Shown: positions 10,250 to 36,611, counted from the whole stretch's first letter. The stretch: DNA of 63,924 nt, filler included, from Aduncisulcus paluster (GCA_024181965.1; 46 parts of 46 records of this genome joined end to end with filler, not necessarily neighbours in it); one strand, 5' to 3'. A program made the numbers and translations. Notes: generated by a model not told the origin, from the letters alone.

Positions 10250-11155
10250 AAAATATATCTTTATTTTTTTAATAGCTATTTTGTTTATGGGATGTAGTTC
10301 CACAAATAGATATGGGTATGTCAATAAAAGTTATTATGAGCCAAATAGTTATTCATCAAGTTATAACAGCACTAATAGTAAGCGTTCATCTGTTAAAGCT
10401 AGCACTTCACAATATACTTCTACTTCAAAAATAAGAAATAGTAAAGCGATGCATAGAGCAACAATGCGTCCTTATGAAGTTTTTGGTAAGAAGTACTATC
10501 CAACAGTTGCTCGAATAAACGATCAGTTAAGAGGAATTGCTTCTTGGTACGGCCCAAAATTTCATGCAAAAAAAACAAGCAACGGTGAGCTTTATAATAT
10601 GTATGCAAATACAGCGGCACATAAAACACTTCCTATGAATACAATGGTAAAAGTGCAGAATTTAGAAAATGGAAAATCTACAATTGTGCGGATCAATGAT
10701 AGAGGACCTTTTGTAAGTGGAAGGATTATAGATCTTTCAAATAAAGCTGCTCATGCTATTGATATGGTAAAAAAAGGTACAGCAAGAGTTCGAGTAACTG
10801 TTATTGGATTTAATGGAAAAATTGCTAGAACAAAAGAGGAAAAGAAAGCTGTACGAAGTATGTCAAATTATTATGTACAAGTTGGAGTATTTGCTAAAAT
10901 TGCAGGTGCAAATGTAACAAAACGAAAATTTGATTTAGTGCTAGANNNNNNNNNNNNNNNNNNNNNNNNNNNNNNNNNNNNNNNNNNNNNNNNNNNNNNN
11001 NNNNNNNNNNNNNNNNNNNNNNNNNNNNNNNNNNNNNNNNNNNNNNNNNNNNNNNNNNNNNNNNNGTTTGGATTAGTGGGTTTAGAAGTGAACAAGAAGC
11101 AGAAGATTTTAAAAAGAATTATAATCTAAAAAAAGCTATGATAATAGCTGAATAA
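10230..11155 (+). CDS. rlpA: Septal ring lytic transglycosylase RlpA lipoprotein
   Basis: Lipobox FMGC, GIASWYGPKFH, AAHKTLP, VRINDRGPF, IDLS; SPOR tail after the gap. Confidence 0.93.
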
Positions 11156-11164
11156 GGAGTAAAG

Positions 11165-11444
11165 ATGCAAGAGTTAAATAGAGTTACTAAAGAAACAAAA
11201 ATTACTTGTGCTATCGATATACAAGGAACAGGAAAGTCAACAATTAAAACGGGAATAGGTTTTTTTGATCATATGTTAGAAGCTTTTAGTAAACATAGTG
11301 CAATTGACTTGGATCTTAATTGTGAAGGCGATTTACATGTTGACTATCATCATAGTGTAGAAGATTGTGGAATCGTAATAGGACAATTACTAAAAAAAGA
11401 GATATTTCCTATAGAAAATGTTGAAAGATATGGAAATGCTACAG
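11165..11444 (+). CDS. hisB: Imidazoleglycerol-phosphate dehydratase, N-terminal part
   Basis: RVTKETKI, TGIGFFDHML, GDLHVDYHHSVED. Confidence 0.95.
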
Positions 11445-11544
11445 NNNNNNNNNNNNNNNNNNNNNNNNNNNNNNNNNNNNNNNNNNNNTTAATTAATTAA
11501 NNNNNNNNNNNNNNNNNNNNNNNNNNNNNNNNNNNNNNNNNNNN

Positions 11545-12762
11545 TAACCCAGTTGATCCACGGCATCAATAGCTGCTTTTGCATTGGCAACCAGCTGCTT
11601 CCTGAACGAATCGTTGGGCTCTTCATCCCCCTCACCAATAATTGGAAACGAAGCGCCGTCGAGAATGGCAAAACCACGGGCAACCCAAAAAATTGGTGAT
11701 CCGTAATTGGGCGATGTAAATGTATGCGGCGAAGTGGTAACCTGGCTGGCGCTGGCTATGTCTTTGTATTCACGCGGGTATGCCCAGAGTAACATGGGGA
11801 GTTTCTCTTTCTTTTCGCGGTTGTAACCGGCAGGTAAATACAACGTTCCCGATAATTCCACTCCGTCGTCGCGTTTGTATATTATTACTTCTTTGTAGAC
11901 GTTTTGCAGGCTTTCAAAAGGATTTTCAAAAAAGGTGATTTGTTGGGGGGCAATTCGTTTTATGGTGTTTCGAATAAAATAATTCGGGACTATGGTTTGA
12001 GATTCAACACGGGTTAAAAGAACACCTTTCTTGGCATCAAGCACTTCTGAAATCTGTTCCAGGTTTTCTTTCCCGTCGGCACGCCAAAGTTCCTTTGTTT
12101 CTTTGGTTTTTAAATTTAATGATCGAAAAAACGGGCGCATACCTTCAGGTGAATGTCCACGTCCGGTGAGGTATAAATTATTTTTATCGATGGTCAGAAT
12201 ATTTTCGCCCCATTCATTTTTTTCGGTTACAAAACGTCCGGGGTCGTTGTAATTATCCTGGTAATTCACATCAAAAATTATCTCCGGTTTTTGTTCCGGG
12301 TTGGAAGGATTAAACCAATAGGTTTTTGAATTTCTGGTACTCCACCACCTGTCGGAAGCAACGGCAATTTTATCATTTCCCCATTGGATGTTGGCCAACC
12401 GCTGTTGAACTTTTACCAACGATTTTGGAGAGCCGTTAAACGGTGCTTCCAGTTCAGATATTTCATCGCGGAATTCAGCTTCAATCGCAGGATCTCCCTC
12501 ATCCAGAGCTTGCACATAAAAAATGGTTGCCGGTTTATCAGCACGCCAGTTGATACTCCTTTTCCCTTTGGTTGTAGAGTTGAAACCCTGTGGCATTACT
12601 TCGGTTAACGGCGATTCTTCAATCATTTGTACTTTGTTTCCGTTGATATCGTAAACCATCGTTTTTGAAGGGAAACGATAATATGTTACAATGTAAGAAA
12701 AAGGTTTCTCCAAATAGTTAACCAGCACATATTCTCCGTTGGGCGACACATCCAGACGTGTA
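11545..12762 (-). CDS. Peptidase S9 family (prolyl oligopeptidase/glutamyl endopeptidase-like), internal fragment
   Basis: YKRDDGVELSGTLYLP, WAYPREY, PIIGEGDEEPND. Confidence 0.88.
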
Positions 12763-12862
12763 NNNNNNNNNNNNNNNNNNNNNNNNNNNNNNNNNNNNNN
12801 NNNNNNTTAATTAATTAANNNNNNNNNNNNNNNNNNNNNNNNNNNNNNNNNNNNNNNNNNNN

Positions 12863-13023
12863 CCAGTTGTTTTGAAAGTAAAACCAGTTGGAACATCCAA
12901 ATTTAAAAATTGTAATTCGTCTGCTCCTGGATCGGGATCATCTTCAATTTTAGATGAATTTGAACAGGAAATGCCAATCAGAAATAAAGACAAAAATAAC
13001 AATGGATTGAAAATCTTATTCAT
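12863..13023 (-). CDS. Lipoprotein N-terminus (LruC-domain-like)
   Basis: Lipobox GISC followed by LDVPTGFTFKTT. Confidence 0.55.
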
Positions 13024-13144
13024 AGTAGGTTTATTTTTAATTTATAGTCGATTTGTGGTGTAAAGTATCTCTTACGTAAATAAGTAACAATTGTTTAAAC
13101 AAAATGTTCAATTATGAAAGAAATTAACTAGCAATAGTTGAGAA

Positions 13145-13528
13145 TTGATCTTCTATTCACTTTTTCGTAACTTATGTGAACGCAATTCCATAAACCAAGA
13201 TTCTATGAACTCAACAGAAATGATAAACATTATTACCAAAGGCAACTGGCGTAATATTGAAACACAAGAAATCTGCTCCTTCTCATGGTCAGATTCCAAT
13301 CAATCCATTAACATTCATTTTAAATCAGGCAATAAAGCTGGACGTGGCGATTCTCATAAATTTGTGAAACTGTATAACAGCAAAAAAGATATGGAAGATT
13401 GTACCGTTCTCCGATTTCAGAGTAACCTTTTTACCAGTGAATTTAGATTGTGTTCCGAGAATGGTCCTATGGCGGTTGCTTCTGCCGTATTTGGCAAAAT
13501 GGATTTGGAAAGAGTCGAAGAACTCTAG
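13145..13528 (+). CDS. Hypothetical protein
   Basis: 127-codon ORF; true start may be the Met at 13205; no motif recognised. Confidence 0.5.
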   Translation: MIFYSLFRNLCERNSINQDSMNSTEMINIITKGNWRNIETQEICSFSWSDSNQSINIHFKSGNKAGRGDSHKFVKLYNSKKDMEDCTVLRFQSNLFTSEFRLCSENGPMAVASAVFGKMDLERVEEL

Positions 13529-13568
13529 GTAAAGGCTATAATTTTAAAACCTGCAGTAGTAAATTGCG

Positions 13569-13598
13569 AAAAAAAGCCACAAGCACGGAACTTGTGGC
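13569..13598 (-). terminator. Intrinsic terminator between convergent genes
   Basis: GCCACAAG-N7-CTTGTGGC stem with a 7-A run (U tract on the minus strand). Confidence 0.7.
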
Positions 13599-13615
13599 GA
13601 TTGAACTTCTTCTAA

Positions 13616-14118
13616 TTATTTTTGAGTAAACTCGAGTACTGTTGCATTCTCATCTTTCAGGATGTCTTGCTCTTTTCGATTCAATTCCAACTCGTTTATT
13701 ACTTTTTCTTTTGTAGGGAAATAGGTAGCAAACAGCACCATTATCATACCAGCAAATCCTATTAATAGGTAGCTTCCTGTTATTAAAAAGGTAACAATAG
13801 CAAAAAATGCAGGTCCTTCCATAATTGCAAACTTCACAATTTGGGTAGCTCTATACGAATCCAGTTTCGAACTTAAGTCTTTTTCTTTTCTATCTTTCTC
13901 TAGCCTTTTGGGAATCAAAATATAATTAGCTACAAAACTTCCAAGAAAAAAAAGTGGCACCATTACCAAAAAGATATTCTCCATTTCAGCATCCTTCTGC
14001 GCTATTCCATTCGTTTGATTCAAAAATAAGGTCATTGCAGCAAATAATACTGCTCCTAACAGCAAAGCAGCGTGCACAATATTTAATGCTTTTAAGTACT
14101 GTTTAAAGTTTTGTTTGA
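13616..14118 (-). CDS. Four-TM hypothetical membrane protein (Bacteroidota)
   Basis: Hydrophobic helices; YRATQIVKFAIMEGPAFF and FPTKEKVINEL. Confidence 0.7.
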
Positions 14119-14218
14119 NNNNNNNNNNNNNNNNNNNNNNNNNNNNNNNNNNNNNNNNNNNNTTAATTAATTAANNNNNNNNNNNNNNNNNNNNNNNNNN
14201 NNNNNNNNNNNNNNNNNN

Positions 14219-14305
14219 CTTTTCCTAGAGCTTCTTTTCTGTCATCCTCGATTGTAAGTGATGATAATTTAGCTAATTTATCTATTGTTGTATTATCAAT
14301 TGTCA

Positions 14306-14306
<1 letters not shown>
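14219..14306 (-). CDS. gatC: Asp/Glu-tRNA amidotransferase subunit C, N-terminus
   Basis: MTIDNTTIDKLAKLSSL; TAATG overlap with the tgt stop. Confidence 0.8.
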
Positions 14307-15293
<987 letters not shown>

Positions 15294-15393
15294 NNNNNNN
15301 NNNNNNNNNNNNNNNNNNNNNNNNNNNNNNNNNNNNNTTAATTAATTAANNNNNNNNNNNNNNNNNNNNNNNNNNNNNNNNNNNNNNNNNNNN

Positions 15394-15814
15394 TGGGTTG
15401 CACGACGTCAGGAGACACATCATCGGGGAAAGTGAGATCACCACTGGCCTGATCACTCGACCCATCCGAGGTGCTATCAGACGAACTGTCAGACTCACAC
15501 AATCCCGTGGAAGAGTTGTACGTCTCCTTTGAGCCCAAGTACTTTGTGCTGCAATCAACAGCATCACACACACCTGTCGTAGAGTTGAACGTCTGATCCT
15601 TCGTGCAAACACTCACACAAAATTGGACACCATCGGGGTCGACATAGTAATTGTTGGGCGAAATACAATCAGATGGCGACAAGATTTCAACAGAGATCGT
15701 GGAAACGAATGGAAGAGTAATAAAGGGAAATAATATCACGAGAGATATGCATGCGATGCATGGAAGAAAAGTGGAAATGTGATAATTCATGAGATAATAA
15801 ATAAGATGATTCAA
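15394..15814 (-). CDS. Eukaryotic Cys-rich secreted or surface protein fragment
   Basis: Hydrophobic N-terminal segment, repeated (F/Y)NS(T/S)TG(V/L)C motif, Ser/Asp-rich linker. Confidence 0.5.
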
Positions 15815-16609
15815 ATTATCAGAACAATCGTATTAAAAGATGGAAATATCGCACGTGATAATATGAACAATGTAAAAATAAGCAACAAGAACACATTCAA
15901 TGATCACAGACACGACCAGGGAGAGGGGTAAAAAAAAAAAAATGTCAAATTTTGGGTGATGGAAAGACAAAAAATTTGGAAATTTCAAAATTTGGAGATT
16001 CGAGTGAAGTGATGTGCACGTGGGATTCATGAATAGAATATAAATAACGATTCTATGCAAAACCATGTGATATGCGGGGTATGGTGGTATTATGAACATG
16101 GTCCAGGAATAAAGATGGAGAAACGCGGATCTGTGAAATATCCGGGATAGATGGATGATATCAGGAATGAAACATAAAACGATAGTTAAAGAAATGAAAT
16201 GTATTATTCTTGTATAACCACAAATCGAACGTGAAACGCATCACTTTGGTTATAGCACGAATGCGGACGGTGGCATGGGAGATAAAGTGGAAAGATCTCA
16301 ACCTTACATAAGATAATGGATCCTCGCGGGGAGTATGTCTGTAGTGATATCCAGCAATGCCTGCCAGAAGTGGTTTTTGGATAATCATCATCATGATGAT
16401 CATCGAGCATGATTATGTCCACTCAGTGAGCAGAAACATCAATTATTCCTTCCATGCACACAGGTATGGCGATCGGATAAGCACAGATATATTTTATTTT
16501 TGATGAACTNNNNNNNNNNNNNNNNNNNNNNNNNNNNNNNNNNNNNNNNNNNNTTAATTAATTAANNNNNNNNNNNNNNNNNNNNNNNNNNNNNNNNNNN
16601 NNNNNNNNN

Positions 16610-17511
16610 ATCATAGAAAGCATTGCACCCATTCTAGCTAGTCGTGATTGGTGTAACATAGCTCTATCTTTCTTTTTTACTTCATTGATTGCTTTTGTGA
16701 TTCTTTTCTCAAGATTTTTATTTATATCTTGAAGTTCAAACTCTTTTTTCTCGACACTTTGCTTATAATTTGAAAATACATTATTAATCTTTTGTGATAT
16801 GAGAAATGATAAAATTCCTGTAATAAGTATAATTAAACTAGAAATCAATAAAACTTGTGTGATATATTTGTCAATTCTTTTTTCAAGTATTTTTTTGTTT
16901 TGCCTAATAGAAGCTTCAATATCGTCTATGTAAAGACCAGCTCCTATGACCCAGTTGAATTTTTTGTAAAGTCGAAAAAAACCAAGTTTATTTGAAAAAT
17001 GTAGCTCTTTAGGTTTTTGCCAAGAATATTCTATAAATACTCCATTTGGTTCTTTTAGTGTTTTATCAATAAACTTTTTGGTGATTTGTGTTCCTCTTGC
17101 ATCTTCGAGTTTACTATCTTCAAGACCTATTTGATTTTGCCTAAAAGGGTGAGCTATCAAATAATAATTTGTATCGTGTATCCAAACATATCCATGTTTT
17201 TCATATCTGATAGTTTCTATATAATCTATTAATCTTTTTTTTACTTCTTTTTCACTTAGATTTTGATTACTTTTGGTGTGATGTTCTATGTAGTTGATAA
17301 TATGATTTATCTCTTTTTTAAGAATATTTTTTTGTTTTTGGAGATACTCCATTTCTACTCGAAGACTCTCATCTTCAAAGTAATCATGTTGTTGTTTAAC
17401 AAAGAAATAAATCGTAAAAAAAGCCCCAAGCAGCACTGTGATAACGGGTGTTAAAATGATAAGTCTTGGGATATTTTTTTCAGTAAACACAAGTTCTCCT
17501 TCAATTATCAC
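16610..17511 (-). CDS. Cache-domain sensor histidine kinase, N-terminal part
   Basis: TM-Cache (IRYEKHGYVWI...WVIGAGLYIDD)-TM, then QSRLARMGAMLSM leading into the H-box. Confidence 0.88.
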
Positions 17512-17535
17512 ATAGTTTACTCAAAAAAAGTGAGT

Positions 17536-17808
17536 TTAGGGTGAGTTTTTAATAGTATGTTTTTCTTTATAATTTTTATATATACCATAGAGTGTAATAA
17601 ATATCCAAAAAACCTCGATGATAAAAGAACCAAGATTAAAATGAACACATAAAGAGATCAGTAGTAGAACTGCACCTATTAGGTTTATGAGTTGAAATTT
17701 TAATGACTGAGTATCGTAAGTACCTGTTTGAAGTAAGAAGTAAGCGAAAACGATAAAAATCATCCCCACAAACCCTATAACTTGAAATATATCTAAACTA
17801 TCTAGCAT
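17536..17808 (-). CDS. Small membrane protein (CBU_0592-like)
   Basis: AYFLLQ...NLIGAVLLLISL...FIIEVFWI. Confidence 0.75.
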   Translation of the reverse strand: MLDSLDIFQVIGFVGMIFIVFAYFLLQTGTYDTQSLKFQLINLIGAVLLLISLCVHFNLGSFIIEVFWIFITLYGIYKNYKEKHTIKNSP

Positions 17809-17823
17809 GAAAATTTCTACAAA

Positions 17824-17913
17824 TTATACAATAGCTGTGATGGTAACAGTAAAGTCTAGATCACATCCAGCAAGAGGGTGATTATAATCTACAGTAACCT
17901 CTTCACCAGTCAC
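17824..17913 (-). CDS. FKBP-type PPIase (SlyD/FkpB-like), C-terminus
   Basis: VTVDYNHPLAGCDLDFTV. Confidence 0.85.
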   Translation of the reverse strand: MTGEEVTVDYNHPLAGCDLDFTVTITAIV

Positions 17914-18013
17914 NNNNNNNNNNNNNNNNNNNNNNNNNNNNNNNNNNNNNNNNNNNNTTAATTAATTAANNNNNNNNNNNNNNNNNNNNNNNNNNNNNNN
18001 NNNNNNNNNNNNN

Positions 18014-19225
18014 AAGATTTTTTATGAAATAATTGTTTATAGATATATTTTTCATTAGTAGTAATATCAAAAACTAATTTTACACCATATTTTTTCAGTT
18101 GAAATTCTATCCCTTTCCATAAAAACATAAACCTATCTTGTGTAATAATTTTGAGGGTTAAACCATTTAGTAACTTTTTAATTTTCTCTGAAGAGAGTCT
18201 ATTTTGTGGGTATTCTTTTTTATTAGCTATTTTGTGAACTATTTTGTAGTTTATAGATGTTGCGAAGGGCGAAATTTTCCCCTCTTTTTTATATACAAAG
18301 TTTAATAGGTTTTCTTGATTAAGTGCTTGATTAAGAGCTTGTCTAACTTCTTGATTTTTTAATTCTTTATTTCCATTGATAATATTAAAATATATGATAA
18401 AATTATTTGTTGATTCTCGAATTACCAATTTTGCATGATTTGAAAGGATAGTATCTATTTTTTTATTAAAAGCTATAGGTGTAATATCGAGTTTTCCTTC
18501 ATAGTTTGTTACATAGTCTAAAGCTTTATTCATATTAAGTTGGGTGTATACTGTTATTTTTTTTATTTTAGGATATCTTTTATCCCAATAATAAGGATTT
18601 GCAACTAGTTCTATTTTTTCTGATTGTTTTTCACCTAAAGCATAACCACTTTTTAAAATATATGGTCCAGTTCCAAATGTCCCAGCAACACTAGTTGCAG
18701 AACCTGTCTCTTCACCTTTTGGAGAATAGTTTTTTAAGTACTCATCTGTATAGAAATATATTCTAGCAAGGTCTAAAAAAAACATCTCGTATTTTTGTTT
18801 TAATTTTATTTGAAATTTGTGCTTACTGATTTTTGTTACAGTAAAATCTATTTTGTCGATATTTGTATAAAGAAAAGGATTTTTTTTGAAGTGATTTAGA
18901 TTTTTTATCACAGAATGTATATCCAAAGGTGAACCATCTTGAAATTTTAAATTTTTTCTAAGTTCAAAGATATAAGTAAAATCATCAATTCTTTCATGAG
19001 ATACAGCCAAGTCATAAACCCAACCTTGTTCATTATCATCAGAACGAATGAGTCCTGCATTTGTATTTTTGGCAATGTAAGAGTAGGGGATACTTGGTAG
19101 AAAAACTTTTATATGTGAGTTTTTATGTAGTTTAGAAGCGACCCTTGATAAAGAGTCATCATCTTTAAATTGTATTGGTTTTATCTCGTTTGAAAATAAA
19201 AAAATAAATAATAAGTTAAAAGCTA
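18014..19225 (-). CDS. Family-5-like solute-binding protein, partial
   Basis: YDLAVSH..IDDFTYIFELRKNLKFQDGSP, GTGPY, VRQALNQA; frame stays open into the gap. Confidence 0.75.
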
Positions 19226-19433
19226 NNNNNNNNNNNNNNNNNNNNNNNNNNNNNNNNNNNNNNNNNNNNNNNNNNNNNNNNNNNNNNNNNNNNNNNNNNN
19301 NNNNNNNNNNNNNNNNNNNNNNNNNNNNNNNNNNNNNNNNNNNNNNNNNNNNNNNNNNNNNNNNNNNNNNNNNNNNNNNNNNNNNNNNNNNNNNNNNNNN
19401 NNNNNNNNNNNNNNNNNNNNNNNNNNNNNNNNN

Positions 19434-19737
19434 CTAAACAAGTCGATACCCAATGCCTGAGAGATTAAACATAATATCTGTGGGTAATTTTTTTCTCAAA
19501 TTTCTCACAAGTGATCTAAGTGCACTATCTGTCATGACATCATCACCCCAAACATACTCTTGCAACTCTTCATATGTAGTCATTTTATCTTGATTTGATA
19601 TCAGTCGTTCAAAAAAACAAATCTCTTTTTTATTTAATATTACAATGTTATTTTGATAAGATAACTCTTTTTTATCATAGTCATAAACATAATCTTTATC
19701 AACTTTTAAAACCTCAATATTGTTTACATCAATAATA
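19434..19737 (-). CDS. OmpR-family response regulator, C-terminal DNA-binding domain
   Basis: LNKKE...YVWGDD...ALRSLVRNLRKKL...GIGYRLV*. Confidence 0.88.
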
Positions 19738-19837
19738 NNNNNNNNNNNNNNNNNNNNNNNNNNNNNNNNNNNNNNNNNNNNTTAATTAATTAANNNNNNN
19801 NNNNNNNNNNNNNNNNNNNNNNNNNNNNNNNNNNNNN

Positions 19838-20189
19838 ATTAACAATGCATCATTTACTAATGATGATTTCATAGTATCATCTATTGACCATCCAACAACT
19901 TTTCTGGAATAAATATCAATAACAGTTGCAAGATATTCTGAATTTTTCTTCGTGAAACTACAACCCCATATTTTTGTACTAAATAAGATTTTAATCGTCT
20001 TGTTCCATAAGTATTATATGATTGTTTAAAAGCATTTTTTATAAGTGTATTTAATGAACTATCAATCTTATTGATTACACAACCATTATTTATCCATCTA
20101 TAATAACAACTTCTTGTTATTTGAAATACTTTACACATTAAAGTAACAGAGAAACTCTCTTCATGTTGTTTTATCCAGGCATACCTTAT
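19838..20189 (-). pseudogene. IS3 transposase OrfB, internally deleted and frameshifted
   Basis: MCKVFQITRSCYYRW...TYGTRRL..VSRRKI joins directly to [30 protein letters not shown] in shifted frames; the WxxDIT catalytic segment is absent. Confidence 0.8.
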
Positions 20190-20482
20190 AGAGTTTCTTT
20201 TGCGAAATATGCCGCTGCCTTTTTTAATATTTCACGTTCTTGCTTTACCTGTATGAGCTCTTTTCTAAGTCGTTTGTTTTCGTCTTCTAATGTTTCTTTT
20301 GTGGAGTTGATTATGTTATGATTTCCAATATTATTGGATTTTTTATATTCTCGTATCCACAAAGATAATGTTTTATCATTCATTCCTAAATCATTTGCAA
20401 TCTTCTTTGTAGAATCTTCACTATTCATCACTAGTTGAATTGCTGAATCCTTAAATTCTTTAGTGTATTTACTTTTTCTCAT
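20186..20482 (-). CDS. IS3 transposase OrfA
   Basis: KYTKEFKDSAIQL...TLSLWIR...ENKRLRKEL...EREILKKAAAYFAKE. Confidence 0.92.
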   Translation of the reverse strand: MRKSKYTKEFKDSAIQLVMNSEDSTKKIANDLGMNDKTLSLWIREYKKSNNIGNHNIINSTKETLEDENKRLRKELIQVKQEREILKKAAAYFAKETL

Positions 20483-20624
20483 TCTATCTCACTTTTAATA
20501 ATTGTAACATAGAATTACTATTAATTTTATGTCCTATTTACTGTAGCCAGATCATGTTGATAATCCAATTGTTCCAGAAGTTATACTTACAAAATTTTTA
20601 AGAACGTTTGCTGTTAAAATAATT

Positions 20625-20828
20625 TCATTGTTTATCATACTTCAATTTAAAAAATAATATTATTATTCCAAATAAAACTATTATTATTCCAAAATAAATA
20701 TTTTCAGGATAATATAATACCATTNNNNNNNNNNNNNNNNNNNNCATTTTACCATCTAAAGCATTTGGATTGAAAATAATATAAATTCCTGATAATAAAA
20801 GACCTATTATTAAATTATAAATTTTCAT
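20625..20828 (-). CDS. Putative two-TM immunity protein for the upstream Rhs C-terminus
   Basis: Small hydrophobic ORF with ATGA overlap on the toxin stop. Confidence 0.6.
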   Translation of the reverse strand: MKIYNLIIGLLLSGIYIIFNPNALDGKMXXXXXXXMVLYYPENIYFGIIIVLFGIIILFFKLKYDKQ

Positions 20829-21496
20829 AACTCACTCGATATATAAGATTTTTCTTCATATACTTCTTTGGTAAACTTAGATAACCATCCTGTCATACTG
20901 GTAGGAGTTGTATCAAAACTCGTTCCTGAAATAATATCATATGTCATACTAGCAGTACCAGACAACCCACTTGTCAACGCAAGCTCTGTACCAGTCATAG
21001 CAATATTTAGCATATATCTTGGAATTGTTGGTGCATTATCCCGAACATCACGATAACCATTAATCCCACCTTGCAATGCTATGGGTATATCAGAACTCAC
21101 TTTATCATAAATATTACCTGCCCCATTCATCACTCTACCCATTTGTGCATTATTTTGTTCTATTCTTGTACTAATTGTATCTACTGTACTTGATATATTA
21201 TCACTTACTTCATTCCACATCGCTTCTCGTTCAGAAGATATATTCTGAGAATATTGCATCTGTGCTTGTGTCATAGTTGTATGCGTTGTCCCCATAGGAT
21301 CAAGATACCTAAGCGGATTATTCATAACATAAGCATAAAGATTCATACCATCTACATATCCTTTGGGGTCTCTTTGCATAAATCTTCCTAGAGTTGGGCT
21401 ATACATTCTATTTCTATAGTAATACAGTTCTGATTCTTGGTCATATCTTCTTCCTGTGTATGTAATTGTCGTAATATTTTTTAGTTTTTTAGTTTT
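20825..21496 (-). CDS. Orphan Rhs core-terminal plus variable C-terminal toxin module
   Basis: YTGRRYDQESELYYYRNRMYSPTLGRFMQRDP..DGMNLYAYVMNNPLRYLDPMG; frame closed by TAA at 21497-21499 with no upstream Rhs body. Confidence 0.85.
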   Translation of the reverse strand, partial: KTKKLKNITTITYTGRRYDQESELYYYRNRMYSPTLGRFMQRDPKGYVDGMNLYAYVMNNPLRYLDPMGTTHTTMTQAQMQYSQNISSEREAMWNEVSDNISSTVDTISTRIEQNNAQMGRVMNGAGNIYDKVSSDIPIALQGGINGYRDVRDNAPTIPRYMLNIAMTGTELALTSGLSGTASMTYDIISGTSFDTTPTSMTGWLSKFTKEVYEEKSYISSEL

Positions 21497-21584
21497 TTAC
21501 TTATAAAAATAAATATAACTCCTGATAATAACCATATACTAGCTTCTATACTTGATACTTGATGCCAATGTCTAACATAAACTT
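21481..21584 (-). CDS. C-terminus of a preceding small membrane protein (possible immunity gene)
   Basis: ...SIEASIWLLSGVIFIFISKKLKN*; TM helix plus basic tail like the downstream small ORF. Confidence 0.45.
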
Positions 21585-21861
21585 NNNNNNNNNNNNNNNN
21601 NNNNNNNNNNNNNNNNNNNNNNNNNNNNTTAATTAATTAANNNNNNNNNNNNNNNNNNNNNNNNNNNNNNNNNNNNNNNNNNNNCAAATAAGTTCTTCCA
21701 GTACCATTACTATAATGTTTCATTCTAATTTTATCTCTCAGTATTTCTAGTCATTTCTTAGCCATAATAACTGTCCTTAAATAAAATGTCTGTTAATGCC
21801 TCAATACTAAATTAAATCTTTATTTGGTACAATATATAAAATTCTTAGCAAAGGATAGAGT

Positions 21862-22134
21862 ATGAACTTAAGTCAAGACATAAAACCTATTAGTTATCTA
21901 AAAGCAAAAACAGCCGATGTTATTAATAATGTAAATGACACGCAAAGAACAGTCATCATCACACAAAATGGTGAAGCAAAAGCTGTAATACAAGATATTA
22001 AAAGTTATGAAAATATGCAAAACTCTCTAAACTTACTTAAACTCATTGTTCAAAGTGAAAATGATATTGTAAAAGATGATATTGTAAAACAAGATGAAAT
22101 GTTTGATAACTTAGAACAAAAACTATTTGGATAA
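21862..22134 (+). CDS. Phd/YefM family antitoxin
   Basis: DIKPISYLKA..VIITQNGEAKAVIQD; RBS AAGGA. Confidence 0.92.
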   Translation: MNLSQDIKPISYLKAKTADVINNVNDTQRTVIITQNGEAKAVIQDIKSYENMQNSLNLLKLIVQSENDIVKDDIVKQDEMFDNLEQKLFG

Positions 22135-22140
22135 AATCAA

Positions 22141-22464
22141 ATGAAAGATTTTAAAGTTATATGGACTAATAACGCTCAGTATGATTTAGAATCAATAATT
22201 GAATATATCAAAATAGACAGTCTAAATACTGCAAAAAAGATATTCGTTGAAATTAAAAAAGAGTGTGATTGTTTATACTATTTTCCTGAAAGAAAAAGAG
22301 TCGTACCAGAACTACAACAAATTGGAATCTTAAAATATAGAGAAATTATTCATAAAAGATGGAGAATCATATTTAAAATAGATGATAAAAAAGTGTATAT
22401 TTTACTAGTAGTAGATTCAAGTAGAAACTTAGAAGATATATTGTTTCAAAGAATGATGAAATAA
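22141..22464 (+). CDS. RelE/ParE family toxin
   Basis: VIWTNNAQYDLESIIEYI...VPEL...YREII..WRIIF; follows the antitoxin after 6 bp. Confidence 0.9.
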   Translation: MKDFKVIWTNNAQYDLESIIEYIKIDSLNTAKKIFVEIKKECDCLYYFPERKRVVPELQQIGILKYREIIHKRWRIIFKIDDKKVYILLVVDSSRNLEDILFQRMMK

Positions 22465-22484
22465 AAACTAAAAAAGGAGAAATA

Positions 22485-22589
22485 ATGGAATTACTATACA
22501 AAACATTCGAAATAGCAATAGGTTTATTTTTCATATTTATGATTTATAGATTTCTCAAATGTAGATTTGGAAAATGTGACTTAAAATAG
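22485..22589 (+). CDS. 34-aa single-TM small protein
   Basis: AAGGAG RBS; MELLYKTFEIAIGLFFIFMIYRFLKCRFGKCDLK*. Confidence 0.55.
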   Translation: MELLYKTFEIAIGLFFIFMIYRFLKCRFGKCDLK

Positions 22590-22656
22590 AGAACTTTAAG
22601 TCCATATTACCTAAAATAAGGATAGAAAATAAACTTATATTTTAGGAGAAAATAAA

Positions 22657-22777
22657 ATGAAAACTACTACCCTATTTCCAAATCGTTATGTACAAGGTGC
22701 AGATATTTTAAAAGATTTAGGTACAAATGTATCTAAACTTGGAAATCATGCTTTTATGATTTGTGATCCATTCGCTC
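22657..22777 (+). CDS. gldA: Glycerol dehydrogenase, N-terminus
   Basis: MKTTTLFPNRYVQGADIL...MICDPF; AGGAG RBS. Confidence 0.75.
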
Positions 22778-23979
22778 NNNNNNNNNNNNNNNNNNNNNNN
22801 NNNNNNNNNNNNNNNNNNNNNTTAATTAATTAANNNNNNNNNNNNNNNNNNNNNNNNNNNNNNNNNNNNNNNNNNNNAAGAGAAATCTTATATATATGAC
22901 TGGAAGCAGAAGAAGGAATACAAAAAAGGAACGCTTGGGAAGACTGAGCAATCGAAAAGATAAAACACAACAGGAAGAAATCAATCATCCTCCAAATATT
23001 GCAAATTGATTATAAGGCATGCTCCAAACAACAGAAACACCTCTGATATACCATTATGTGATAAACCCAGTGAGATACCAGTGATATCTTTGTCATGAAA
23101 TGGCAATAAATTTGTTAACGCCATCCTCAAATCCAGAAATGTCATATATTACCAAGAACAATCACAAAAACTAAAACCATCAAAAAAACGGTGGTACAAA
23201 AGAATCATAGAATTCATCATTCATATACTGATTATAACATACCGAATTAATAAAAAACACGAAGCAAAATATGAGAATATTTCATAAGAACATGAAAAAA
23301 AAAGAAAGAAAGAATAGCTGGCAAACAACAGTTGCAAAACAATCGTGTCAGGGCAAACACGATCAAATTGCAACGAAAAACATTTTTCGGGCCCTAATCG
23401 AAAAATGAATTTCTACTGCTGTTCAAAAAAAAAAAATTCATTCCGTTTTTCAAAAATTTCAGTAAATCCAAAACTCACATTAGTATTGTGATAATATTCC
23501 AAAGTATAATACATCATACAAATTAATTACAAGCACAATTATCCACCAATAATCCAATATCATGCTTTAAGCCATAGCTCTCGAAATAATATATTCTATA
23601 GAACTATTCAATAAAAAATAATATTAATGTTATAAGTTTAAGTGTATTATCATATTAAAATAAGAATTTTAGTTGAATCAATGCACCTAATGAAAGATCA
23701 AAGATTTTGGATGGTTGGAGATATTTATGGTTAGAATTTCATCTTCTCGTGATACTAGACCCGATATCCCAGGAGAAAGAGGCATTGAATCGGCTCCTGA
23801 AAGTCATTCCAGTGATCCATCAGCCAATCGAACATTGGGCCCAACAGATGAAACTAGATTGACTCTTGTGCTGGATCATNNNNNNNNNNNNNNNNNNNNN
23901 NNNNNNNNNNNNNNNNNNNNNNNTTAATTAATTAANNNNNNNNNNNNNNNNNNNNNNNNNNNNNNNNNNNNNNNNNNNN

Positions 23980-24798
23980 TTAATTGATTATACCATTGCT
24001 AAATTTGAAGATGGAGATAAAAATAGAGATAAATTTTTCCCTTATTCTACAGATGATGAATTAAAAAACAATATTCAAAAAAATGTTAAATATGAAGATT
24101 TAAGAAAAGGAAACTATGCTTTTAATAAGCAAGGTCAATATTCATATAATGAAATTAATGAGATGCCACCTTATGATGAACTTGTTGAAAAAGGTGAAGA
24201 GTTATATGAAGATAATAAAGCTTTACAAAAATGTTTTCCAGATGTAACTGTTGCTGGAGATTATCCATATTTCGATGAAGAAAAGAAAGAAGTAGTAAGT
24301 TTAACTGGTGCTATAAACAAATGTTTAACTGATGCAGGTCAAAAAGCATGGAATGAGAAAAAAGGGAAAATGGCATTTTTCCAATCATACATAGCTTCAG
24401 AAACAAAAGATGCAGAGAAAAAAGTAAATATTCAAATTAATAGTGCAGAAGCAGCTGCTGCTTATGAAAGAGGGAAAGAGTTTTATTATACTCAAAGAGG
24501 ATATTTAAAATTATCATGTGCTACTTGTCATGTACAAGGTGCAGGAAAACGAGTTAGAAATGAAAGTTTATCTCAGTTAGCAGGACATACTACGCATTTT
24601 CCAGTTTTTAGATTAAAATGGGGAAAAGATAAAGTAGAAAATGGACTAGGAACATTGGAAAGAAGAATGGCTGGATGTGTAAAAGATCAAGGTCAAGTTC
24701 CTCCAAAAACAAATAGTAAAGAGATGAAAGAGTTACTTTATTTCATGGCATATATGTCAAATGGAATGAATGTTGACGGTCCAGATGTAAGAAAGTAA
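23980..24798 (+). CDS. soxA: Sulfur oxidation c-type cytochrome SoxA
   Basis: MPPYDELVEKGEELY, YYTQRGYLKLSCATCH, FPVFRLKW, ERRMAGC, GPDVRK. Confidence 0.92.
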   Translation, partial: LIDYTIAKFEDGDKNRDKFFPYSTDDELKNNIQKNVKYEDLRKGNYAFNKQGQYSYNEINEMPPYDELVEKGEELYEDNKALQKCFPDVTVAGDYPYFDEEKKEVVSLTGAINKCLTDAGQKAWNEKKGKMAFFQSYIASETKDAEKKVNIQINSAEAAAAYERGKEFYYTQRGYLKLSCATCHVQGAGKRVRNESLSQLAGHTTHFPVFRLKWGKDKVENGLGTLERRMAGCVKDQGQVPPKTNSKEMKELLYFMAYMSNGMNVDGPDVRK

Positions 24799-24810
24799 GG
24801 GTTAGATATT

Positions 24811-25114
24811 ATGAAAAAATTATATAGCGTAATCGCAGCAACTAGTTTAGCATTAGCGATAACAGGATGTTCAAATAATCAAGTTACTACACCAACTTAT
24901 GACAATCTAGATGAAAGAAAACTTTGTAATGTAAGTACAAATGGAATCGATTCAGTGTTAAAAGTAGCGCAGAAGTACAATAAAATTGCCAAAGAACATG
25001 GTGTTGAATTTAAAAGACTAGGTATGACAAATACTCAGTATATAGATGAATCAATAAAATCAATTAATGCAGGTGAAAAAAAAGTAGTACTTTTAAATAA
25101 AAAAGGAAAACCTA
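24811..25114 (+). CDS. Hypothetical lipoprotein downstream of soxA
   Basis: Lipobox ITGC; starts 12 bp after the soxA stop. Confidence 0.75.
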
Positions 25115-25214
25115 NNNNNNNNNNNNNNNNNNNNNNNNNNNNNNNNNNNNNNNNNNNNTTAATTAATTAANNNNNNNNNNNNNNNNNNNNNNNNNNNNNN
25201 NNNNNNNNNNNNNN

Positions 25215-25696
25215 TTTCTGCTATTCAAATTATTGGTGATCTTATTGGATATGCGACTGCATTATCTATGGCAAATATGTTTGATCCAGCTACTGGTACG
25301 CAACAAGGTGTAGTAAGTAGATTGCTATATATGGTTATTTTAGTGATCTATTTAGAATCAGGGATGTATGAAGTGACCCTTTATATGCTCGCAGTTAGTT
25401 TTGATCAGATATCTTTGGGAACTTTTAATATATTTAGTTATGATGGTATATTATATGCTTCTCAAGAGATAAATAGAATGTTTGCATTTGCATTCGCATT
25501 TGCATTTCCTTTGTTTTTTATAGGTTTTATTCTTGATGTTTATTATGCTTATGGAACAAAATCTATGCCAGCATTTTCCCCTTTTGTAATCACTTTTCAA
25601 ATTAAATTTGCTTTGATTTTTATTTTTATGATGTTTGGTTTTGAGATATTTGTTGATAATTTTAATAATTATTTTATAAGTAAGTTTGAGTATTAA
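25215..25696 (+). CDS. fliR: Flagellar export protein FliR, C-terminal part
   Basis: Hydrophobic; MANMFDPATG, KSMPAFSPFVITFQIK; precedes flhB. Confidence 0.85.
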
Positions 25697-25705
25697 AGGT
25701 TTTTT

Positions 25706-26405
25706 ATGGCTGATGAAGAAGAAAAAACAGAAGAACCCACGGGTAAAAAGATTGATGATTCCAAAGCAGAAGGGAATGTCCCTAAATCTGCTGAAGTACC
25801 AGGGGCTGCAATTTTATTTTTCTCATCTATATATTTACTTTTTTTTGCAGGATCTTTTTTTCGTGATATAGAAAAACTTATGATATATATCTATTCATTT
25901 ATAGGCACAGAAGTAAATGGACATACCTATTTTGAGATAACAAGTAGTATTATTTATACTATGTTAGTTGGTATGTTTCCTTTATTTTTTTTGATATTGT
26001 TTTTAGGTGTTATATTCAATACGATGCAATTTGGTTTTGTTTTTACACCTTTAAAAATAAAGCTAGATAAAATTAATCCAATAAGTGGATTTAAAAATAT
26101 TTTTAGTGCTAAAAAAGCACTTGAAGCGCTGAAACTTACAGCAAAACTAATTTTGATTTTTATTGTTATGTTAATAATTTTAGCTATTATTTGGGATAGT
26201 ATTTTAGCGATGATGGATAAAGAGATACACGCATCTCTTGATGCTATGATGACATTGACTATATACTTTTTATTGACAATTCTTTTAATTATAATCATTT
26301 TTGCTATAATAGATTTCTTTTTTACAAGACATTATTATTTCAAACAATTAAGAATGTCAAAACAAGAGATTAAAGATGAACATAAACAGATGGAGGGAGA
26401 TCCCT
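25706..26405 (+). CDS. flhB: Flagellar export protein FlhB, partial
   Basis: EKTEEPTGKK, INPISGFKNIFS, LRMSKQEIKDEHKQMEGDP. Confidence 0.96.
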
Positions 26406-26505
26406 NNNNNNNNNNNNNNNNNNNNNNNNNNNNNNNNNNNNNNNNNNNNTTAATTAATTAANNNNNNNNNNNNNNNNNNNNNNNNNNNNNNNNNNNNNNN
26501 NNNNN

Positions 26506-27516
26506 ACGACTGCACAGGAGGCTATAGTAGAGGTATATCACAATGCTCTATTCTCTGGCCATTACGGTCGGTCGTATACAGTGAAAAGGATTAAGGAGAA
26601 CGGTTTTACTTGGAGAACTCTGAAAGAAACGGTAGACAAGGTGATAGACTCATGTTTGATCTGCCAGAAAACGACTCCAAAACCCGATCCATCCATTATG
26701 GGAACTTTAGTTCAGAAAGCTCCATTCGATCAGCTCTCAGTGGATCTGTTTGGTCCTATTGATCCAGATGCACAGCTAGGATACAAGTACCTCACAGTCT
26801 TTGTGGATAACTTCAGCAGATTTGTTGAGCTCGTCCCAAGTGAAAGTACTACAGTGCTGGAAGCCAAACAGGCCTTATTACAGGTGATAGGGAGGCATGG
26901 TTCACCTAAAACAATTCGAACAGATGGAGGATCACAGTTTACTTCCTCTATGTGGAGGGAATTGATGACGACGCTGGGAATTGAGCACATAGTAACTACT
27001 CCAGATCACCATCAAGAAAATGGTCAAGTAGAGAGAGTCAACCGAGAGATATTGAGGCAGCTTAGGCTCCATTTTGCGGCTGGATGCTCAAAACCGACTG
27101 GGTCAAGTTAGTCCCCATCATTATGGGTACTATAAACTCTCGGGTATCAGAAAGAACAGGTAGAAGCCCAATGGAAATCCTGTATGGCCAGAAAAGGAAA
27201 CCTCATAAGCTGTTTAAAGAATCTTCTGGTGCAACCCCGGAGATATGGGAAAAGATTCTGAGTTACAGAGAGGATGTGAGGGATGATGTTGAGTCTGAGG
27301 TTCGAACATCGGATGAAAAGGTCGTCTCGCAGAGAGAACAGTCTCAGACAGATTTTATACCCTTCAAACCTGGGGAGAAAGTACTTTTGAGCCGGAGGAA
27401 ACCCGGAAAGAAGACAGACACCATCAATCTTGGTCCTTTTGTGGTGCTTGAGAAGACAAGCAGTTTTTATTACAGAGTAGAGTCTGTTAATGGAGGAAAG
27501 AAACAAAAGGTACATG
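26506..27516 (+). mobile_element. Ty3/Gypsy LTR retrotransposon integrase, with a frameshift near 27070-27090
   Basis: H..GH..CLIC zinc finger, SVDLFGP, VDNFSRF, RTDGGSQF, NGQVERVN, then a GPF (GPY/F) module in the second frame. Confidence 0.9.
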
Positions 27517-28641: not shown

Positions 28642-28742
28642 NNNNNNNNNNNNNNNNNNNNNNNNNNNNNNNNNNNNNNNNNNNNTTAATTAATTAANNN
28701 NNNNNNNNNNNNNNNNNNNNNNNNNNNNNNNNNNNNNNNNNT

Positions 28743-29147
28743 CACAAAGTCTGTGATACGGTTGTATCAAGCCTTCATAAGATATCTCCCTCCTTACCTC
28801 TCCTCAGAGAGCAATACTCCTCCACAGAACATCGTCCGGATATTATGGTTGACTTTTCCCCCCCTATCTACATCGAAATCACCATAACATACGCTGACGC
28901 CAGGATATCATCTCTCGAAACCGCCACCAGAAAGAAGAGGGAGAAATACCGTGAGCTCGACGATCTTATTGTAATTACACTATCTCACGATGGAATCTAC
29001 ATGCCTTCTCTTACCAGAGAATTGTCTGAATACTTGTCAATATCGGAAAGACAAGCCCTAAGAACATTAAATGATGCAGCTCAAGCAGCACTCCGCGAGA
29101 GCTGCAGAATATTGCGCAAACGATACGCAAGATCTCGCAACATGTGA
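28743..29147 (+). mobile_element. C-terminal restriction-like endonuclease (RLE) of a non-LTR retrotransposon ORF (element A)
   Basis: Frame open from the fragment edge: HKVCD...REQ...HRPDIMV...YIEITIT...KKREKY, i.e. RPD..(D/E)..KxxKY. Confidence 0.7.
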
Positions 29148-29687
29148 ATGAATATACTCTCTCTATCTACTTCTCTTAAGTTATAAACATATCAGTGTTT
29201 AATAACACTATCTCTATTATTATTGATCTTAATTTACAATGAGTGTTTAGAAACACTACTTTTATTTTACTTTTATCATATATCTTTCCCAAAAAAAAAA
29301 AACAAAACAAAAACAAAAACAAAACATCCACCTCTTCTATTAATTCTGACTCTCTTCTATTTTTACTACTCTATCTCCCCTTCTTGCAATAACTTATCTA
29401 TTTTTACTTTATTATTCTCCTCTTTTACTCCCTAATCCTATTTACTTCTCCCTCCTCTATTAATTCCATAAAACCTCTACAGTGATACCTTCCGAACCTC
29501 TCAAGACCCGATGAACTTCGGTGAAGGTGAATGAGAGCGAAGGAGAAGGTATCTCCGCAAGTTTCCTCCGCCCTCCCCCTGCCATTAAGTGGTCACGTTG
29601 CCTTCTTCCCAGCAGGGAATGGCTGTTAAGGGTATTCTTTTTCCCGTGAGGGTTTTTTCTTATCGTTAATAAACTACTACTATACTA

Positions 29688-29839
29688 TTCTTTGTGACTA
29701 TATTATTCTTTGTGACTATATTATTCTTTGTGACTATATTATTCTTTGTGACTATATTATTCTTTGTGACTATATTATTCTTTGTGACTATATTATTCTT
29801 TGTGACTATATTATTCTTTGTGACTATATTATTCTTTGT
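29688..29839 (+). repeat. Perfect tandem repeat (TTCTTTGTGACTATATTA) x8 plus 8 bp
   Basis: Read directly; no spacers. Confidence 0.97.
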
Positions 29840-30006
29840 CATTTTAATTTTGACAAATATAACATAGGCATCTCCAGAATATGTATATTTCTGTTCTTAA
29901 TTTACCNNNNNNNNNNNNNNNNNNNNNNNNNNNNNNNNNNNNNNNNNNNNTTAATTAATTAANNNNNNNNNNNNNNNNNNNNNNNNNNNNNNNNNNNNNN
30001 NNNNNN

Positions 30007-34953: not shown

Positions 34954-35102
34954 ACAAGAAAAGCTACAGTACAAGAAAAGCTACAGTACAAGAAAAGCTA
35001 CAGTACAAGAAAAGCTACAGTACAAGAAAAGCTACAGTACAAGAAAAGCTACAGTACAAGAAAAGCTACAGTACAAGAAAAGCTACAGTACAAGAAAAGC
35101 TA
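34954..35102 (-). repeat. Perfect tandem repeat (ACAAGAAAAGCTACAGT on +) x8 plus 13 bp, running to the fragment edge
   Basis: Read directly; no spacers. Confidence 0.97.
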
Positions 35103-35267
35103 GTAGTAACAGTTTATTTGTAATAACATAATAGACCGGCCTAGAGCGAGAGCTCCTGGGGCGAGTTTGAGGCGCACTGCCCGTCATTGGAAGCTGAGAG
35201 GTCTTCTCTTCCCTCATCTTCACACCCACTCACACCAATACTTGACAGAGCGAAGGTGTTTTTCTTA

Positions 35268-36276
35268 AGATGGATGTGGGTGGTTCAGAAGGAAGAGAAG
35301 ACGTCAGTAAAGGAAGGAAGAAAGTTATGCAGAGTTGGAGAGTAGTAGAGGGAGGATATTTAAAACGATGTTATAAAGTAAAATAAAATAAAGTTAAATA
35401 GAGGAAAGAAGAATATGAAACCCTGTGCTTATATAGGATTGAGGAGATGTTGATGGGATAGTGTTGCAGATAGTATTTTTTGTTGTTTTTTTTTTTTTTG
35501 GGAAAAATATTATTAGAAAGTAGTGTTTCTTAACACTAATTTTAATTTAAGATATAAAATAACAAGTAAATAGCAATAGAAAATAGTGTTGTTTGGCACT
35601 GAACTCATGGAAGGGTGTTTTGAATATGATATATTCAAGTCTAGCATATGGGATCATCCGTTTATATATGCAGCCATTATTCTTGCTGTATGCTTCAGGA
35701 CAATTGCTCCCAGAGTGAAGGCCGTTTGTTCAGCTTTTCTCTTCGACATGCCGATCTCGTTNNNNNNNNNNNNNNNNNNNNAGATGGATGTGGGTGGTTC
35801 AGAAGGAAGAGAAGACGTCAGTAAAGGAAGGAAGAAAGTTATGCAGAGTTGGAGAGTAGTAGAGGGAGGATATTTAAAACGATGTTATAAAGTAAAATAA
35901 AATAAAGTTAAATAGAGGAAAGAAGAATATGAAACCCTGTGCTTATATAGGATTGAGGAGATGTTGATGGGATAGTGTTGCAGATAGTATTTTTTGTTGT
36001 TTTTTTTTTTTTTTGGGAAAAATATTATTAGAAAGTAGTGTTTCTTAACACTAATTTTAATTTAAGATATAAAATAACAAGTAAATAGCAATAGAAAATA
36101 GTGTTGTTTGGCACTGAACTCATGGAAGGGTGTTTTGAATATGATATATTCAAGTCTAGCATATGGGATCATCCGTTTATATATGCAGCCATTATTCTTG
36201 CTGTATGCTTCAGGACAATTGCTCCCAGAGTGAAGGCCGTTTGTTCAGCTTTTCTCTTCGACATGCCGATCTCGTT
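35268..36276. repeat. Direct duplication 35268-35761 / 35782-36276 across a 20-N gap
   Basis: Identical except T14 versus T15; probably an unmerged assembly overlap. Confidence 0.9.
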
Positions 36277-36611
36277 CAAGAAGTTCATTGATTTTTTATG
36301 CATAATGCCAGAATGACCAATGATTATGCCAGCTCCATCTGGTCCATACTTGCTCTGTTTTTCATTGAATCTTTTTTCGATAGAGAATAAGGTGGCATCT
36401 TCATAGGTAATTGAGACATCCACCCACCACTTGTGCGTTGGAGTTTTAATTTCAATGTCAGGTCTCAATCCTTCAGTATCTTCATGTTCCATAGTAATCT
36501 CCCACTCTTCGTTGTGGGCCATTAGAACATCAGCCAGTCTATCACGAACTTCGTTGTGTCTCCCTCTATACAGGGGCATTAAAGTTTCACATCCTCCCAA
36601 GACATGGGTCT
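36169..36611 (-). mobile_element. Zinc-knuckle end plus RLE domain of a non-LTR retrotransposon ORF (element B)
   Basis: THVLGGC (H-x4-C end of CCHC), RHNEV, EH..GLRPDI, WVDVSIT, KQSKY. Confidence 0.85.

Follow-up and report, generated by a model that had tools for sequence, protein, structure and literature searches.

Two short scaffolds from the fornicate protist Aduncisulcus paluster raise the question of where a retrotransposon ends when its coding region is followed by some 540 nucleotides (nt) of ordered non-coding sequence and then by a tandem repeat. The scaffolds, A (28742-29906, plus strand, 1165 nt) and B (34954-36611, minus strand, 1658 nt including a contig overlap), lie in the 63,924-nt stretch of DNA that was analyzed, hereafter the window, and each carries the end of an open reading frame (ORF) with a restriction-like endonuclease (RLE) domain. 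The elements are RLE-encoding retrotransposons that lack long terminal repeats (non-LTR retrotransposons), with an uncommon 3' layout. We favor, with evenly divided confidence, the reading that A and B represent the 3' portions of two families that have diverged within one lineage of such elements in A. paluster. Just as finely balanced in our judgment is its companion, that the ~540 nt after the stop codon are a 3' untranslated region (UTR) ending at the motif AATAAAC, after which comes a minisatellite or the next element. A literature search found no paper joining 'Aduncisulcus' and 'retrotransposon', and transposable elements are unmentioned in the announcement of the A. paluster genome (PMC9933649).

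Scaffold B consists of two contigs that overlap over 494 of 495 nt, with one A in a homopolymer as the sole difference and 20 N between them (35762-35781). The segment at 35782-36276 (minus strand) repeats 35268-35761 and has A15 in place of A14, and the stop codon at 36171-36169 recurs at 35656-35654 through the same overlap. This overlap is an assembly artefact and no second copy; once it is merged, the true length of scaffold B is ~1.14 kb.

The Nuclease Domain

Scaffold A begins inside an ORF and holds its last 134 codons and TGA stop (28743-29147, plus strand, stop at 29145-29147), and scaffold B holds the last 146 codons and the stop of another (36169-36609, minus strand, codons 36609-36172, stop 36171-36169). 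The motifs RH(K), RPD, IEI and KKREKY in A, and H-x4-C, RHN, RPD, VDV and KQSKY in B, were read from the sequence and from an alignment of 16 fragments. These findings confirmed what had been reported in an earlier note on this DNA, namely that both scaffolds end an ORF in a nuclease of the form RPD..(D/E)..KxxKY and that B has in addition H-x4-C and RHN. The RLE is followed by the stop codon in both A and B and is thus C-terminal in the ORF. The same note had stated that the two proteins share little beyond these motifs, which was wrong: A and B are 29% identical over 95 residues (E 4e-10) and their protein ends are homologous across the whole domain.

No Pfam family matched the A or B protein fragment. 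An exhaustive phmmer search with B identified 21 proteins, and the source names of 16 of these corresponded to 13 A. paluster gene models and three ENA/Logan records. The alignment of 16 RLE fragments showed the succession C-x2-C...H-x4-C, RH(N/H/D), (R/K)PD, (D/E) and K-x2-KY, and at least eight RLE variants at 25-66% identity were found among the phmmer matches of B and in this alignment. The complete CCHC knuckle, C-x2-C-x7-H-x4-C, was present in P0008, which matches B at 100% identity over the last 42 residues, and a knuckle was also found in the A-like P0019; scaffold A itself begins after the knuckle position.

A profile built from the 16 relatives matched the C-terminal RLE of solved R2 proteins, aligned residue by residue, with E-values of 6.8e-27 (9nl3), 1e-26 (9dou), 9.7e-20 (9nl2), 4.3e-16 (8gh6) and 1.7e-14 (8ibw), which bore out the assignment of the nuclease as an RLE. 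With B alone as the query, R2 was matched at E 0.011, followed by Prp8. With A alone there was no match in the PDB, and A is tied to the RLE family through B (at the E-value given above) and through protein P0015 (E 6.6e-34).

Link to a Reverse Transcriptase

The earlier note had looked to a reverse transcriptase (RT) upstream of the nuclease, and one was identified in relatives of the two elements but not on A or B. P0015, an A. paluster protein of 691 residues, has an RVT_1 domain (E 4.7e-17) and an A-like RLE C-terminus that is 44% identical to A over 134 residues. The second relative, P0028 (413 residues), has RVT_1 at E 4.4e-30 and matched the RTs of L1 ORF2p and R2 at ~1e-12, and is therefore of the non-LTR type.

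A word-based protein search with P0028 returned 44 long RT matches, none of them belonging to A. paluster. The 14 best of the 44 all had a C-terminal RLE as judged by the RLE profile, and the matches with an APE domain scored lower and had no RLE. In a neighbor-joining (NJ) tree of 45 RT regions, comprising unlabelled matches only and having biased sampling and no support values, P0028 was placed beside 22 RTs that carry an RLE and away from those of the APE type, while sitting outside the sampled RLE-bearing group. Word-based protein searches were otherwise sparse, with two matches in one and a single short match in another. The nearest clusters in the ESM Atlas were arthropod proteins named 'reverse transcriptase/hypothetical' (0.94-0.95), which we regard as a lead only.

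The gene model of P0015 lies on a 17-kb contig, where an LTR/DIRS-like RT start, recognized by eye, and a weak tyrosine-recombinase C-end are fused to the non-LTR RT and RLE. This arrangement suggests that a DIRS-like element adjoins the non-LTR element there.

Layout Downstream of the Stop Codons

Six parts had been described in the same order downstream of the two ORFs, and all six were present in that order in A (plus strand) and in B (minus strand). The distance from stop to array, given before as ~540 and 550 nt, came to 531 nt for scaffold A and to 551 nt for scaffold B. The proximal 3' UTR comes first, at 29148-29290 in A, where it is G-poor, and at 35500-35653 in B. It contains paired AGTG-N8-CACT hairpins (A, 29194-29209 and 29242-29257; B, 35600-35585 and 35537-35522) and a 46-nt block conserved between the two scaffolds (A, 29217-29262; B, 35562-35517). 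It is followed in A by TTTCCC-A12 and an A-rich CAAAA(A)C run (29285-29325, with TTCCC-A12 at 29286-29302), and in B by TTTCCC-A14 and an A-rich run (35472-35505, with TTCCC-A14 at 35504-35486). The tract lengths of A12 and A14-15 noted earlier therefore hold for A12 in A and A14 in B, and A15 is found only in B's other overlapping contig.

The CT-rich spacer of A (29326-29483) is G-poor and 77% pyrimidine, with the motif CCTCYTCTATTAATTC at both ends, and that of B (35306-35471) is 71% pyrimidine. A long hairpin, nested in A (29484-29553; B, 35198-35305), is succeeded by a GC-rich segment (A, 29554-29667, 52% GC; B, 35119-35197, 58% GC) in surroundings of 24-33% GC. Next is a short conserved sequence, AATAAACTACTACTA in A (29668-29682, AATAAAC at 29668-29674) and AATAAACTGTTACTA in B (35104-35118, AATAAAC at 35118-35112), which we propose as the 3' boundary of the element. 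The minisatellites consist of 8.9 copies of an 18-nt unit in A (ACTATATTATTCTTTGTG; 29679-29839) and 8.8 copies of a 17-nt unit in B (ACTGTAGCTTTTCTTGT; 34954-35102), the latter cut by the scaffold end. The two repeat units are alike by eye, and the array motifs were found nowhere else in the window.

Local alignments of A with B were made segment by segment, with 500 shuffles for each segment. The 46-nt block in the proximal 3' UTR, with 38 identities, was matched by none of the shuffles, the A-tract by one, and AATAAAC with the first repeat units by two. The hairpin and GC segment gave no alignment (113 of 500 shuffles were as good), and their likeness between A and B is of kind only. The conserved cis-module proposed earlier thus stands, at the level of sequence, for the 46-nt block, the A-tract and AATAAACTnnTACTA, and does not stand for the hairpin/GC part.

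Motif counts and folding gave a similarly uneven picture. All six window matches to AGTG-N8-CACT lie in A or B, compared with 0.42 expected, and none of 100 shuffles reached six; likewise, both window matches to AATAAACTNNTACTA are in A/B (0.09 expected). The 21-nt stem-loop block has three matches in the window, only in A and B, two of them in the duplicated part of B. The conserved proximal stem-loop has 6-7 base pairs, and the small AGTG-N8-CACT hairpins are weak (z -0.1 to -3.6). Among the folds, only hairpins taken alone stand out: the long hairpin of B (108 nt) folds at -43.9 kcal/mol (z -5.1, 0 of 200 shuffles folding as well) and that of A (81 nt in the fold test) at -24.8 kcal/mol (z -2.3, 6 of 200). 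Folds of whole segments were not significant, with z -0.7 for the 211-nt distal region of A and z -0.4 and -0.9 for the proximal UTRs.

We considered whether the shared order could be a product of chance or a low-complexity assembly artefact. The artefact within B and the weakness of the small hairpins are in keeping with such an origin. The failure of any shuffle to reach the 46-nt block, the confinement of AGTG-N8-CACT to A and B, the recurrence of one order on two scaffolds and the coverage of A by independent contigs of the DNA run X1 all speak against it, and we regard this explanation as having a negligible probability.

Several other signals in this region were examined. Rfam scans, at gathering thresholds over the window and with E-values of up to 10 for A and B, identified no ribozyme, R2 element, small nuclear RNA (snRNA) or spliced leader RNA, and returned microRNA-like noise only. 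A hepatitis delta virus (HDV)-like ribozyme was rejected on this basis and because a loose descriptor of our own was likewise unconvincing, having no match in B and two overlapping matches in A that run into the array, with matches in 7 of 50 and 10 of 50 shuffles. A hammerhead-like CCGAUGA...GAA in the A hairpin, seen by eye, was also rejected, as the conserved U is absent, stem II has 2 base pairs and Rfam was silent. A metagenome match, L001, to the 21-nt stem-loop block was taken as chance since it had no RLE context and no other shared motif. The sequence CCTC(T/C)TCTATTAATTC opens and closes the A spacer (29324-29346 and 29444-29466, 19 of 23 identical), and the second copy begins at the point where a DNA contig turns into array-like repeats (29452). 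The 67-nt flank of A after the array (29840-29906) is unlike anything in A or B; its best match to them, 17 of 20, was reached by 17 of 300 shuffles and is not meaningful.

Where the Element Ends

The contig of P0028 bears most directly on the end point. Residues 2-53 of P0028 are the translation of DNA homologous to B 35274-35118, that is, to the 3' half of the B hairpin and the GC segment (E 4e-9 and 1e-3, with one frameshift). At AATAAAC, read as Q-I-N in B and as Q-A-I-N in P0028, the homology breaks off, and next comes the RT ORF. A single 1767-nt contig thus has a B-like hairpin/GC module immediately upstream of an RT ORF, the two sharing a strand. The same B-like module was identified on two more small contigs, those of P0073 and P0074, which break at about this point. 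The upstream module of P0028 showed no likeness to that of A.

A module placed before an RT ORF, in a frame that stays open from an ATG within the hairpin region, is also what would be seen if the element truly ended at the oligo(A). In that case the spacer, hairpin, GC segment and AATAAAC would make up the 5' UTR of the next copy in a head-to-tail tandem array of the kind reported for Giardia GilM/GilT, with the minisatellite as a variable insert in this 5' UTR. The position of TTTCCC-A12/14/15 fits this arrangement, as it lies 143-154 nt past the stop and comes after the one block that is strongly conserved, which has the stem-loop; so do the similar word depths of the ORF end, spacer and hairpin in single contigs. 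We judge this alternative unlikely, although it carries appreciable weight.

The relationships of the RT in P0028 argue against that alternative. This RT is 70% identical to the RT of P0015, whose RLE is 44% identical to that of A and only 28.6% identical to that of B. Among 19 full-length RT+RLE proteins, mostly from animal elements, the RT exceeded the RLE in identity by a mean of 6.8 points and a maximum of 19.7 (171 pairs, r = 0.83). At 70% RT identity, the RLE that belongs with P0028 should therefore be at least ~50% identical to that of P0015 and hence not B-like. By this calibration the RT of P0028 is of the A-like family, so that the B-like module and the RT ORF after it would belong to different elements; module and ORF do not co-vary, as they would if the module were the 5' UTR of that ORF. 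In A and B, moreover, it is the array and not an ORF that comes after the module. Open frames over CT-rich DNA are expected from composition alone, as in P0074. One contig has array-like repeats directly before 29452, which fits a 5'-truncated copy that keeps a distal 3' end and does not fit a 3'-truncated 5' UTR.

Based on these sequence comparisons, the module and ORF on the P0028 contig seem to come from different elements, with the joint at AATAAAC. A gene model of A. paluster, P0007, on a 22-kb contig, that contains both an A-like and a B-like RLE also fits a 3' UTR reaching to AATAAAC. Since the next element can start after an AATAAAC end, the elements would sit head to tail in clusters of mixed families, as is indicated by P0028 and P0007. 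Of the two alternatives in the earlier note, the evidence thus leans to the first, in which all of the downstream sequence is 3' UTR, yet the tandem head-to-tail setting that the note had tied to the second seems to be true too.

A number of observations weigh against a 3' UTR of this extent and against the assignment on which it builds. The best-conserved non-coding sequence, the 46-nt block with its stem-loop, stands just before the oligo(A), followed by TTTCCC-A(n), and the B contigs differ as A14 and A15, as would be the case at a true poly(A) end preceded by a stem-loop for RT recognition. The key adjacency comes from one BRAKER gene model, that of P0028, where an intron or a chimeric contig is possible; the collinearity of Q-(A)-I-N amounts to two residues, and the loose ends come from a single contig each. 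The calibration set is dominated by animal elements. Neither A nor B shows an RT together with the RLE, as both scaffolds stop inside the RLE domain; the two were found together only in P0015, a chimeric gene model with a duplicated RT piece and a weak Phage_integrase C-end (residues 133-180, E 0.019). Neither target-site duplications nor empty sites were seen.

Copies and Their Surroundings

Analyses of DNA run X1 identified 337 contigs on the 1165 nt of A, with 199 at ≥99% identity, 112 at 95-99% and 26 at 90-95%. As these contigs lie on A at graded identities, many diverged copies of the element exist. Word depths in single contigs were 15,856 for the ORF end, 15,439-16,000 for the spacer (with a variant at ~3,000) and 18,090 for the hairpin, and that of the flank after the array of A was of the same order as the element (7,594-27,388); these depths are not copy numbers and show only that the parts, flank included, are similarly repeated. 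Other copies of A continue after AATAAACTACTACTATA into other short-unit arrays or unrelated sequence, each seen in one contig. A further contig has other array-like repeats before the last two 18-mers, and in some contigs array-like repeats flank the hairpin-GC unit on both sides.

The repetition of the flank and the occurrence of array-like repeats on both sides of the hairpin-GC unit raise a further alternative, that the module and array are a host repeat. It could be a satellite or subtelomeric repeat serving as a fixed insertion site, or the whole block could have been multiplied by unequal crossing-over. The preference for repeats stated for most RLE elements in an excerpt of PMC4640811 is consistent with such a site. 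In opposition to it, no empty repeat unit was seen, and the hairpin/GC part could not be aligned between A and B. In addition, P0004, a copy of B at 96% identity, has a module that is 95% identical; the module thus diverges with the element, unlike a shared host target. We consider a host repeat improbable.

The gene models in which these copies were found are in part composite. P0007, described above, and P0011, which lies on a 1.5-Mb contig of another organism, have two or three RLE domains per model, and RLE elements therefore occur in tandem in A. paluster and in another organism. The models P0004 and P0025 place a GT-AG splice between ...TLGAI, in the RLE ORF, and KNTFALSS..., within the long hairpin (35701-35264, minus strand), so that stop, proximal UTR, oligo(A) and spacer are all skipped. 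This intron is probably a prediction artefact. The contigs on A, the only scaffold examined in this way, showed no joints, and the intron is hence without support there. Run X2, which was only guessed to be RNA, gave two contigs on A, at 28742-28830 and 29335-29650, with a depth of 4-6 and the rest of A uncovered. The start of an X2 contig at 29329 was considered as a transcript start and rejected, as DNA contigs break there too.

Proposed Mechanism

We infer the end point of the element, its target and the role of its RNA structures, and analogy with R2 suggests target-primed reverse transcription. The sequence after the stop, all of which we read as 3' UTR, runs from a G-poor proximal part of ~145 nt with a conserved stem-loop through TTTCCC-oligo(A) and ~160 nt of CT-rich spacer to the hairpin and GC segment, which are specific to the family, and on to the conserved AATAAACTnnTACTA. 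The element would end at or just after AATAAAC, and beyond it would lie a minisatellite of 10-18-nt units or the 5' start of another element. The protein may bind its own RNA at the structured distal part of the 3' UTR while the RLE nicks a target that is repeated, probably either the minisatellite or the joint next to a copy already inserted, and reverse transcription would then start at the AATAAAC end.

The status of the minisatellite in this scheme can be viewed in two ways. As different arrays are found behind the end of one family, the minisatellite looks more like a target than like a tail made by the element. The resemblance between the A and B repeat units and their start at the same homologous point lean toward a self-made tail. 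We speculate further that the elements form subtelomeric or chromosome-end clusters, as GilM and GilT do in Giardia, in which the arrays would be written by the element RT through repeated copying of a short 3'-terminal template, in the manner of telomerase, so that every family would make a minisatellite of its own, with later copies homing to it; the oligo(A) would be what remains of an earlier 3' end, lengthened by read-through. This version is a long shot. Under the preferred reading of a 3' UTR that reaches AATAAAC, the layout offers several RNA candidates for RT binding, namely the stem-loop, the internal oligo(A), the structured distal module and the sharp AATAAAC boundary beside the minisatellite.

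Source of the Sequence

The A. paluster genome is a MaSuRCA draft from Illumina reads with 25,863 contigs, obtained from a culture with food bacteria (PMC9933649). The window is not one locus but strings together ~50 scaffolds, each 1-1.7 kb long, with linkers of the form N...TTAATTAATTAA...N; genes on either side of a linker are not neighbors in any genome. Its scaffolds fall into three composition classes, with GC of ~0.25-0.33, ~0.62-0.71 and 0.36-0.51, and those of low and high GC, mixed with the protist's own, are probably from the food bacteria. The Rfam scan at gathering thresholds identified two pieces of eukaryotic large subunit (LSU) rRNA in the window (52995-53832 and 62667-63924) and one of bacterial LSU rRNA (54380-55073). 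A repeat of CTACTACTG / ACTACT at 60764-60814 lies, by eye, in a coding region on the minus strand, probably a serine-rich one, and is apparently unrelated to the A and B arrays. The presence of these RLE elements explains why the draft assembly is shattered at these places into ~1-kb scaffolds and chimeric gene models.

Comparison with Known Systems

One close comparison is with R2 (R2Bm, R2Tg and relatives; 8gh6, 8ibw, 9dou, 9nl2 and 9nl3), with which the A. paluster elements share a C-terminal CCHC and PD-(D/E)xK RLE and an RT of the non-LTR type. A structured 3' UTR, as the likely handle for the RT, is a further resemblance to R2. The ORF also appears to start without an ATG, as in R2, judging from P0028 and P0015. 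Unlike in R2, only ~40 residues precede RT motif 0 in P0028 and P0015, and the N-terminal zinc-finger and Myb domains were not seen. The A. paluster elements differ further in that an oligo(A) lies within the downstream sequence and a minisatellite follows its end, with no ribosomal DNA target seen and no HDV-like self-cleaving ribozyme, the nested double pseudoknot that R2 and others have upstream of the ORF, found by Rfam or our own descriptor, and in an RT that falls outside the sampled RLE-bearing group in the NJ tree.

Insertion in or beside repeats has precedents among RLE elements, most of which are target-specific for repeats, microsatellites included, according to an excerpt of PMC4640811. 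Utopia, a NeSL-related RLE element, is described in the same excerpt as standing in tandem with its repeated target, arrays of U2 snRNA genes (PMC4640811); in contrast, the downstream region of A and B contains no snRNA or other Rfam family. Dong, Togen and some HERO families are likewise said there to insert in simple tandem repeats, so that the repeat follows the 3' end (PMC4640811). The A. paluster elements differ from these in that the repeat units are 10-18 nt and vary between families and copies.

Among non-LTR retrotransposons, those with an RLE, which include the R2, R4, NeSL, CRE/Genie and HERO groups, are held to be the oldest, and their usual deep-branching examples come from Giardia. 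By description, GilM and GilT (Genie) resemble the A. paluster elements in being RLE-type non-LTR elements of a fornicate host, and they reportedly form telomere-associated head-to-tail arrays joined at oligo(A). They differ in that the downstream module here ends in a 17/18-nt minisatellite and that A and B show no telomeric repeats. No Giardia source was found among the 16 of 21 phmmer matches of B whose names were looked up. Portions of two published accounts describe GilM and GilT as inserted in tandem or site-specifically in repeats (PMC1950533) and place them with the CRE clade by their RT (PMC10088271). A diverse RLE lineage in a free-living relative of Giardia would provide a second sampling point within the Fornicata for how such elements choose their targets and define their ends.

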